Shown: one piece after another, positions 1-9,682 of the stretch
Layout of the letters: the number at the start of each line of letters is the position of its first letter
How positions within the stretch are numbered: position 1 is the first letter of the stretch
Translations under genes and position numbers: made by a program
From: a virus
Length of the DNA: 10,979 nt
Reading direction: 5' to 3' (one strand)
UHGV virus genome: UHGV-1780201
Notes under the pieces: generated by a model
Databases searched by the model: none
What the model was told of the DNA's origin: nothing
Seen by the model: only the letters and a program-made list of their open reading frames with translations

Positions 1-828
1 CACGCCTGTAATCTCATTCAGGTACTGACATTTCATATATAAATCAGATGACTTTTGTGCATCAGTCTGTGATAATCCCGCAACATTACGCATCTTTGTA
101 TAGAGAAACAGATTTTTAAAGTTGTTGCGGCCTTTCGACTTGACCATGTTTTCGCGAAGCATTTCGATATCGTTGCGATCCTGCACGGCATCGGTGACGT
201 ACATGATGTATCCGGCATGCGCGCCGTTTTCGTAATACTTGCGGCGGAACAGCGTGGCCGACTCATTCAGCCAGGCAGAGTTAAGGGCGCTGAGATATTC
301 CGGCAGGCCGTACAGCTCCTGATTAATATCCGGCTCCAGCAGGTGAAACACGGAACCGTGCGTGAAGTCTGTCTGTTCGTTGAAGGACGGCACCCCTCAG
401 TAAACATCCTCCTCCACGCCACGGCGGGTATATTTTGCCGGTGAGGTTTCCAGTCTGATGACCTTACCGGTGGTGCTGTAACGCTTTTCCAGAAACGCAT
501 TACCGAACACCAGAAAATCCAGCACAAAGCGGCTGAAATCCTGTTGCGAAAGCCACGGGTGCGGAATAAACGTTGAAGCCAGAATATTACGTTTGACGTA
601 AATCGGTGAGCTGTGATGTACGGCAGCACGCAGGCTTTTTGCCAGACCGGTAAAGCTGACCGGTGGCTCATACCATCTGCCGTTACTGATGCACTCGACG
701 TAATCCAGAATGTCACGGCGGTCGAGTACCGGCACCGGTTCACCAAAGGTGAATGCTTCCATTTTCGGGGCGCTGGCGGTGATTGTTTTTGCCGCAGGTT
801 GCGGTGTTTTCCCTTTTTTCTTGCTCAT
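1..828 (-). pseudogene. Q: Portal protein gpQ (P2-like), 3' end beyond window; interrupted by an in-frame TGA at 397-399
   Basis: ATG at 826-828 (minus) opens a 143-codon ORF (MSKKKGKTPQPAAK...RRGVEEDVY) ending at TGA 397-399. The same frame continues with no further stop for 132 codons to position 1 (GVPSFNEQTDFTHGSVFHLLEPDINQELYGLPEYLSALNSAWLNESATLFRRKYYENGAHAGYIMYVTD...). Position immediately downstream of P and the overlapping ATGA junction with the P stop match the P2 P-Q arrangement. Identity is from recollection of P2 gpQ, not a search. Confidence 0.75.
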
Positions 829-2600
829 CAGTAAAACTCCAGAATGGTGGATGTCAGCGGGGTGCTGATACCGGCGGTGAGTGGCTCATTTAACAGGGCG
901 TGCATGGTTGCCCAGGCGAGGTCGGCGTGGCTGGCTTCCTCGCTGCGGCTGGCCTCATAGGTGGCGCTGCGTCCGCTGCTGGTCATGGTCTTGCGGATAG
1001 CCATAAACGAGCTGGTGATGTCGGTGGCGCTGACGTCATATTCCAGACAGCCACGGCGGATAACGTCTTTTGCCTTGAGCACCATTGCGGTTTTCATTTC
1101 CGGCGTGTAGCGGATATCGCGCGCGGCGGGATAGAACGAGCGCACGAGCTGGAACACGCCGACACCGAGGCCGGTGGCATCAATACCGATGTATTCGACG
1201 TTGTATTTTTCGGTGAGTTTGCGGATGGATTCCGCCTGAGTGGCAAAGTCCATGCCTTTCCACTGGTGACGCTCAAGTATTCTGAATTTGCCACCGGCCA
1301 CCACCGGCGGTGCCAGCACCACGCATCCGGCGCTGTCGCCACGGTGTGACGGGTCGTAACCAATCCATACCGGGCGGGAGCCGAACGGATTCGCGGCAAA
1401 CGGCGCATAGTCTTCCCATTCTTCCAGCGTGTCGACCATGCAGCGTTGCAGCTCCTCGAACGGGAACACCGACGCCTTGTCGTCAACAAATTCACACATG
1501 AACAGGTTTTTAAAATCGTCGGCGCTGTTTTCACGTTTGAGCTGCTCAATGTCGAACAGCGTGCAGCCGCCTTTCAGCGCGTCCTCAATGGTGACAATCT
1601 GCCGCCACTGGCCGTCCGCACAGAGAAGACCTCCGGCAAGGGCGTTATGACTGACGTCGATTTCCACGCGTTCGGCGGCGCTGGCGCGCCCCCGGTTGAA
1701 CAGTTCACCCGACCAGAACGGGTAGGCGTCGTGCGCCAGCGTGGACGGGGTGGAGAAATAGGTCGAGCGCAGGTGACTCTGTGAGGCCATACCTGATGCC
1801 ACCTTACGCAGTACCTGAAAATTCGGGATCCAGAAAATCTCGTCGACGTACAGGTCACCGTTATGGCTCTGTGCGGTGTTGGAGTTGGTGCCGAGAAAAA
1901 TCAGTTTTGCGCCATTATTGCCCAGGACGATCGGGTCACCGGACAGGTCAACGTCAACCAGCCGGGCAAAGGCGATGATGTATTCGCGGAACACATACGC
2001 CTGCGTTTTACTGGCCGACAGAAAAATCTGGTTATGGCCGGTTTTCAGGGCGCGCAGCAGCGCCTCGCGGGAAAAATAAAACGTCGCGCCAATCTGGCGG
2101 GATTTCAGGATATCGCGGATGCGGTGCTCAAGCCCGGCGCGATACCAGTGCAACTGATAGTCGAAAGACTGCTCAAAGAAAATCTGCTCCAGCTTTTCGA
2201 TGGCCTCGTCACTGAAAAAATTCTTTTTCGGTTTGCGCCGCCCGCCTTTGTTGCGGTTAGCGACGTTCGGATTAAGGTCTGCCTCGTTGCCGGTCTGACT
2301 GTAACGGTTTACCCGTGCCAGTCGTTCAATCTGGCGTCCCAGCAGGTCAATTTCCTTGAAGTCACCACCGGTTTTCTGCGGTTTGATGATGAGCTGGGTC
2401 AGTCGCGCTTCCAGACTCATTTCGACACGGCTGATGGGGGCAACGCTGTCCCAGCCGTCGCGCTGTTTCCAGCTCTGCACCGTCGGGCGTTTCATCTGCA
2501 ACATGGCGGCAATCTGCGGCACGGAAAACCCCTGCCAGTACAGCAGCGCCGCCTGACGACGCGGGTCGTGTCAAAGAGTGGTGTCTGTGGTGATGGTCAT
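828..2600 (-). CDS. P: Terminase large (ATPase) subunit gpP (P2-like); native ATG at 2598-2600 is followed by an in-frame TGA at codon 10 (2571-2573), then an intact 564-codon ORF (828-2522)
   Basis: The 564-aa ORF 828-2522 (minus) matches my recollection of P2 gpP. Extending the frame upstream gives MTITTDTTL*HDPRRQAALLYWQGFSV, with the ATG at 2598-2600 preceded by a GAGG Shine-Dalgarno (+ strand CCTC at 2606-2609). 26 + 564 = 590 codons, the length I recall for P2 gpP. May be functionally a pseudogene unless internal initiation or readthrough occurs. Confidence 0.8.
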
Positions 2601-2773
2601 GAATACCTCGCCGTGATGAATACACGGCAAGGCTACTGAGTCGCGCCCCGCGATTCGCTAAGGTGCTGTTGTGTCAGTGATAAGCCATCCGGGACTGATG
2701 GCGGAGGATGCGTATCGTCGGGAAACTGATGCCGACATGTGACTCCTCTAATCACTATTCAGGACTCCTGACA
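2601..2773. promoter_or_regulatory. Divergent late promoter region (P_P leftward, P_O rightward), presumed Ogr-activated
   Basis: 173-bp non-coding gap between divergently transcribed P and O. In P2 this interval holds the two divergent Ogr-dependent late promoters (established knowledge). I could not find a clean TGT-N12-ACA element, so exact promoter positions are not assigned. Confidence 0.4.
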
Positions 2774-6322: not shown

Positions 6323-6604
6323 ATGACAGCAGAAGAAAAAAGCGTCCTGTCGCTTTTCATGATTGGGGTGCTGATTGTTGTCGGCAAGGTGCTTGCCGGT
6401 GGTGAACCCATCACCGCGGGTCTGTTTATCGGGCGGATGTTGGTCGGTGGTTTTGTCTGGATGGTTGCCGGTGTTGTTCTGGTGCAGTTTCCTGACCTGT
6501 CACTGCCTGCGGTGTGCGGCATCGGCTCCATGCTGGGTATCGCCGGTTATCAGGTGATTGAGATTGCCATTCAGCGCCGCTTTAAGGGCAGGGGGAAACC
6601 GTAA
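6323..6604 (+). CDS. Y: Holin gpY
   Basis: 93-aa ORF with hydrophobic segments (LSLFMIGVLIVVGKVLAGG, GGFVWMVAGVVLVQF, CGIGSMLGIAGYQVI) and a charged C-terminus (RRFKGRGKP), typical of a holin. Lies immediately upstream of the endolysin, as in P2. Confidence 0.8.
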   Translation: MTAEEKSVLSLFMIGVLIVVGKVLAGGEPITAGLFIGRMLVGGFVWMVAGVVLVQFPDLSLPAVCGIGSMLGIAGYQVIEIAIQRRFKGRGKP

Positions 6605-9040: not shown

Positions 9041-9682
9041 ATGAACACTCTCGCAAATATTCAGGAACTCGCGCGCGCACTGCGCAACATGATCCGCACC
9101 GGCATTATCGTCGAAACCGACCTTAACGCCGGTCGCTGCCGTGTGCAGACCGGCGGCATGTGCACCGACTGGCTTCAGTGGCTGACCCATCGCGCCGGGC
9201 GTTCGCGCACATGGTGGGCACCTTCCGTGGGGGAACAGGTGCTGATTCTGGCCGTGGGCGGTGAACTCGACACGGCGTTCGTTCTGCCGGGGATTTATTC
9301 CGGCGATAACCCCGCGCCGTCTGCGTCGGCGGATGCCCTGCATATCCGTTTCCCTGACGGGGCGGTGATTGAATATGAACCCGAAACCAGTGCACTTACG
9401 GTAAGCGGAATTAAAACGGCCAGCGTGACGGCTTCTGATTCTGTTACTGCCACGGTGCCGGTGGTCACGGTGAAAGCATCAACCCGCGTCACCCTGGACA
9501 CACCGGAAGTGGTCTGCACTAACAAGCTGACTACCGGCACGCTGGAAGTGCAGAAGGGCGGGAAGATGCACGGCAACATCGAGCATACCGACGGGAAATT
9601 CACGTCTAACGGCGTTCAGGTGGATGACCACGGTCACGGTGGTGTTAAGTCAGGAGACAACTGGACACAGGGGACAAAATGA
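9041..9682 (+). CDS. V: Baseplate central spike protein gpV
   Basis: 213-aa ORF (MNTLANIQELARALRNMIRTGIIVETDLNAGRCRVQTGG...) with a C-terminal His-Gly cluster (DDHGHGGVKSGD), consistent with the metal-binding spike apex described for P2 gpV-type spikes. Synteny matches P2. Confidence 0.85.
   Translation: MNTLANIQELARALRNMIRTGIIVETDLNAGRCRVQTGGMCTDWLQWLTHRAGRSRTWWAPSVGEQVLILAVGGELDTAFVLPGIYSGDNPAPSASADALHIRFPDGAVIEYEPETSALTVSGIKTASVTASDSVTATVPVVTVKASTRVTLDTPEVVCTNKLTTGTLEVQKGGKMHGNIEHTDGKFTSNGVQVDDHGHGGVKSGDNWTQGTK

Follow-up and report, generated by a model that had tools for sequence, protein, structure and literature searches.

A premature TGA in the terminase gene P of a P2-like phage contig is probably a base-call error

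Results

An early stop codon in an otherwise intact gene

In the window, by which we mean the whole 10,979-nt stretch of DNA analysed here, the gene for the large subunit of the phage terminase, P, contains an in-frame TGA at its tenth codon. We infer from the assembled consensus that this stop is most probably a base-call error that became fixed in a metagenome contig of very low coverage, and that the phage behind the contig almost certainly encodes Leu10 (as TTA) within a normal 590-aa gpP. As read from the letters, the TGA results from one changed base in a gene that is otherwise intact and collinear, because the flanks of the codon match those of P2 and of phage vB_EcoM-720R8 apart from one T>G: over the 201 nt around the site, this T>G is the sole difference from 720R8 and one of two differences from P2, the other being synonymous. 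The landmarks of the gene are the following.

828–2600, minus strand: gene P, large (ATPase) subunit of the terminase; a frame of 590 codons and a stop that is collinear with P2 gpP and broken only at codon 10
2598–2609, minus strand: native start, ATG (2600..2598), preceded by GAGG (2609..2606) at a distance of five nucleotides, identical in P2 and 720R8
2571–2573, minus strand: in-frame TGA, codon 10 of gene P; private A>C at 2572 on the plus strand
2502–2522, minus strand: candidate internal starts GTG 2522..2520 (codon 27) and ATG 2504..2502 (codon 33), both within the Terminase_5/HTH domain

Read on the minus strand, the beginning of the gene runs GAGG(2609..2606) TATTC ATG(2600..2598) ACC ATC ACC ACA GAC ACC ACT CTT TGA(2573..2571) CAC GAC CCG, the A>C at 2572 on the plus strand corresponding to TTA (Leu) > TGA on the coding strand. 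Translation of 828–2600 (minus) yields 591 codons, MTITTDTTL*HDPRRQAALLYWQGF..., and closes at the usual stop; P2 gpP (NP_046758.1; NC_001895 1221–2993), whose annotated CDS start occupies the same position as the ATG of the window, has 590 aa plus stop and the sequence MTITTDTTLLHDPRRQ.... The two proteins are collinear across the TGA, and tblastn with a P protein gave 99.5% identity over residues 1–590 and no gaps. Both contain the Pfam domains Terminase_5 (an HTH domain, residues 12–69), Terminase_6N, and Terminase_6C. P2 and the window further share the divergent P/O promoter region and the gene order Q-P / O-N-M-L...; they differ in codon 10, which is TTA in P2, and in a few other changes private to the window, including T220S. 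A chance ORF pattern was ruled out as the source of the TGA, given that the gene is collinear with P2 and only one base is changed. The architecture and collinearity of a P2-type terminase large subunit are present, and what the gene lacks is an uninterrupted frame from its native ATG, a break that is probably artefactual.

The sequence-only reading of this DNA had described these features accurately in every detail: the ATG with its GAGG Shine-Dalgarno, a codon total equal to the length of P2 gpP, a native start severed from the body of the gene by an opal codon, and two further in-frame starts downstream. It had asked for collinearity with gpP and for the ancestral codon, which proves to be TTA. 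The biological interpretation that it attached to them, namely a leaky stop or an internal start, found no support, as discussed below.

A shallow contig with a chimeric end

The window is the entire contig NODE_3291_length_10979_cov_2.881765 of the ENA metagenome assembly ERZ773497 (100% identity), an accession for which a literature search gave no result. The contig name is SPAdes-style and gives a k-mer coverage of about 2.9 (cov_2.881765), a depth low enough for sequencing and assembly artefacts and one that changes the reading of any single-base anomaly. The contig covers the late region of a P2-like (Peduovirus) phage and shares 97–98% identity with numerous P2-like phages and prophages of E. 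coli. Its genes are Q (partial) and P on the minus strand, followed by O, N, M, L, X, Y, K, lysA, lysB, lysC, R, S, V, W, and J on the plus strand. Relative to the proteins of the E. coli prophage in NZ_CP039403, all genes other than P and Q are full length and free of frameshifts. The baseplate gene V (9041–9682) encodes a 213-aa allele; its identity to the 211-aa form found in P2 and NZ_CP039403 is only about 89%, and it differs from the V of NZ_CP039403 in its C-terminal allele. The same protein, residue for residue, is widespread: 256 blocks of the collection index it.

The main rival to a base-call error is an ordinary private nonsense mutation, which we regard as unlikely: a P2-like prophage of gut E. 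coli would have recently acquired L10*, lost its terminase large subunit, become packaging-defective, and entered early pseudogene decay. Consistent with such decay, Q, the next gene in the same operon, carries a second stop. The lesions in the window, however, consist of these two nonsense codons only, with zero frameshifts, zero deletions, and the fifteen other late genes full length. Further, the stop lies in a contig that is not only shallow but also joined to foreign sequence at its left end.

1–123, no strand assigned: chimeric contig end; bases 3–123 match a methylase/SNF2-type helicase ORF at 100% identity
100–828, minus strand: portal gene Q, codons 1–243; the contig ends before the remainder, whose place is taken by foreign sequence
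397–399, minus strand: second in-frame TGA, codon 144 of Q (TGG>TGA), adjoining a private TGG>GGG at codon 145 (window 394–399)

Homology to P2 Q ends at base 100, and the GC content of bases 1–99 is 38%, versus 57% elsewhere. Bases 3–123 match three unrelated low-GC metagenome contigs at 100%, in each case within an ORF of >1,100 aa for a methylase/SNF2-type helicase (...VDESHNFKNLFLYTKMRNVAGLSQ...). The overlap of this match with P2 Q is limited to 24 nt (100–123), which code for NFKNLFLY in both proteins. No homolog of bases 1–99 was found in E. coli genomes, P2 relatives, or GTDB representatives. On the evidence of these matches, the left end is demonstrably a chimeric join through a shared 24-mer, and the contig is mis-assembled there, independently of anything in P; the apparent truncation of Q is this chimeric contig end. 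Two other origins of bases 1–99, truncation of the prophage and a mosaic allele of Q, were considered and dropped in view of the 100% copy of a foreign helicase/methylase gene.

At the second stop, codons 144–145 of Q read TGGTGG in 83 panel sequences and TGAGGG in the window only, the changes on the plus strand being A>C and C>T at 396/397. In a draft E. coli assembly (GCA_021016015.1, ABEBTU010000094.1), a contig break falls in Q codon 144, at the equivalent of window position 398. That this is also the site of the error cluster and TGA of the window may be a coincidence; alternatively, the GGC-rich context may be (i) hard for short-read sequencing or (ii) variable between co-resident prophages. 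Outside the window, 0.1–0.75 kb past the 3' end of Q, four relatives carry differing cargo genes, among them a reverse transcriptase with a retron Ec48 effector, a gene for an FRG-domain protein, and Fic. In P2-like prophages, the region next to the portal gene is a known hotspot at which defence genes vary.

The TGA allele is confined to one contig

Codon 10 of P was compared across an 84-member panel of relatives, in which it is TTA in 81 members and TTG in 3; TGA occurs in the window only. All relatives examined start at the ATG equivalent to 2598–2600 and have Leu at codon 10, which disposes of the possibility that homologous terminases begin downstream of 2571. Every one of the ten loci that share the V allele of the window encodes a 590-aa P (10/10). 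The closest relative found, the human-gut metagenome contig ERZ919136 k127_88894 (L089), has the same V allele and gene set, and differs in having an intact 590-aa P and a 344-aa Q, and in lacking both the foreign left end and the private substitutions described below.

Searches with short queries gave the same result. A 61-nt query at the TGA site had matches in 1,509 complete E. coli genomes; all of the 60 matches listed contain one mismatch, and no full-length exact match was found among them. A second query, of 45 nt with the site at its centre and the G in each 28-nt megablast word, was found neither in the 5,426 complete E. coli genomes nor among the 50,697 phage records. The exact 37-mer with TGA gave 0 matches in GTDB species representatives, IMG/VR, and JGI metagenomes. 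That the allele was never seen elsewhere in E. coli genomes and phage records argues against a genuine nonsense mutation, although such mutations do arise in this 11-kb region: 3 of the 84 P2-like relatives have in-frame stops there, in X, lysB, K, and Q, and none in P.

Private substitutions resemble errors

L089 is 99.54% identical to the window over 10,880 nt, with 50 differences and zero indels. We divided these differences into (i) those at which the base of the window also occurs in other relatives and (ii) those private to the window.

Window base also in other relatives: n = 30; 23 transitions and 7 transversions; 23 synonymous, 6 missense, 0 stop, 1 intergenic
Private to window: n = 20; 5 transitions and 15 transversions; 6 synonymous, 12 missense, 2 stops, 0 intergenic

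The two classes differ significantly both in transitions versus transversions (Fisher, p=0.0005) and in synonymous versus non-synonymous changes (6/14 for private and 23/6 for shared; p=0.001). When all possible single substitutions in these genes were enumerated, 24% were synonymous, 73% missense, and 3.2% stops. Because its proportions match those of random substitution, the private class looks like unselected noise. A leave-one-out comparison over 83 relatives was concordant, with 6 transitions and 17 transversions in the window versus 640/333 in the pooled panel (p=0.0002). The private total against this first panel, 23, is no higher than that of some finished relatives, and only the spectrum and the clustering are abnormal. 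The clusters comprise two adjacent private pairs, at 396/397 and 2950/2951, and two runs of a single type.

359–374 (16 nt), plus strand: three private G>T, at 359, 368, and 374; all at codon position 2 of Q, all missense
6416–6459 (44 nt), plus strand: five private C>G in the holin gene Y; four missense

Such runs of one transversion type look like the product of low-quality read tails, and not like natural divergence or mosaicism. An unselected appearance of private substitutions would also be expected from relaxed selection in a decaying prophage, and to that extent the pattern is compatible with a genuine nonsense mutation; relaxed selection nevertheless fails to account for the 3:1 excess of transversions or for the runs of C>G and G>T. 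The private spectrum is thus error-like and distinct from that of the shared polymorphisms, with same-type clusters present.

The P stop at 2572 falls in the private class, as an A>C transversion on the plus strand, and we infer that this substitution in particular is one of the errors. An estimate of expected stops favours this assignment. With ~15 probable errors, each with a 3–4% chance of creating a stop, about 0.5 artefactual stops would be expected, against about 0.05 for a genuine prophage, giving roughly tenfold odds for an artefact; these odds leave aside that the Q stop falls within an evident cluster of errors. The change at 2572 stands alone: its nearest private neighbours are 378 nt (2950) and 629 nt (1943) away, with no obvious bad-read cluster around it. 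It is mainly for this reason that we hold our confidence in a base-call error at high, short of near certainty. By this account, the 11 kb of the window would contain roughly 15 probable base errors, two of which create stop codons.

Readthrough, re-initiation, and recoding

The sequence-only reading had proposed that the stop might be leaky. Under this proposal, near-cognate tRNA-Trp would insert Trp at a genuine UGA-C a few per cent of the time, producing some full-length gpP(L10W) and leaving the phage viable with a reduced burst. The stop context is indeed UGA-C; Poole, Brown and Tate reportedly found in 1995 that no tetranucleotide signal in E. coli is weaker. In eukaryotic systems, UGA-C is a weak terminator (PMC9841425). 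The proposal, however, presupposes that the TGA is real, and the stop is absent from all relatives (0/84 panel members and 0/10 nearest loci). Its flanks are identical to those of Leu-encoding relatives, with no co-evolved stimulatory element. The 76-nt downstream fold is unremarkable (z = -1.8; 10/200 shuffles fold as well), and a SECIS-like or other stimulatory structure downstream was accordingly rejected. No tRNA, suppressor tRNA included, was found in the window. With a private TGA on one contig of ~2.9x coverage, amid a chimeric end and error-like private changes, we consider leaky readthrough very improbable. Less probable still is its more specific form, in which a prophage of gut E. 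coli making gpP(L10W) at a few per cent would hold a natural "throttled" packaging enzyme.

Nothing supports programmed readthrough. The stops of programmed UGA readthrough (e.g., that of the Q-beta A1 protein) are conserved among relatives and lie in evolved contexts. The window shares with programmed UGA readthrough and selenocysteine recoding only an in-frame UGA within a long ORF; in contrast to those systems, its TGA occurs on a single contig, stands where a Leu is conserved, and has the same flanks as stop-free relatives. A programmed event needs conservation, and none is present; neither a conserved stop nor a stimulatory context or structure was found.

The other proposal, internal initiation, holds that a genuine TGA is followed by a restart at GTG codon 27 or ATG codon 33, yielding a working, N-terminally truncated terminase. 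Both codons are in frame, and the gene caller picked GTG 2522..2520 as the start of P. With Terminase_5/HTH spanning residues 12–69, however, a restart at either codon would cut into this conserved N-terminal domain. Neither annotation nor gene calling places the start of any relative there, and the ten nearest loci all have the 590-aa form. An exact-protein look-up returned no record of the 558-aa product from the ATG, and the 564-aa product from the GTG is on record for this contig only. We give this explanation scarcely any weight. An alternative genetic code is excluded by the enterobacterial host range and by the two TGAs standing for different amino acids, Leu in P and Trp in Q.

Discussion

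A base-call error accounts best for the stop in P. On the coding strand, a T at codon 10 would have been read as G (A>C on the plus strand), and the very low depth at which this metagenome contig was assembled would have let the error stand in the consensus. The window has in common with low-coverage short-read assembly errors its 2.9x k-mer coverage, a chimeric join at a 24-mer, and private changes that are rich in transversions, for the most part missense or nonsense, and clustered by type.

Single-base "recoding" signals in this window can be interpreted only with the reads in hand, and the lesson that it offers is one of data quality. Neither an artefact nor a private nonsense mutation is novel. 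If the stop were real, it would mean that a single prophage carries a knockout, private to it, in a gene essential for packaging: ordinary decay with no new mechanism.
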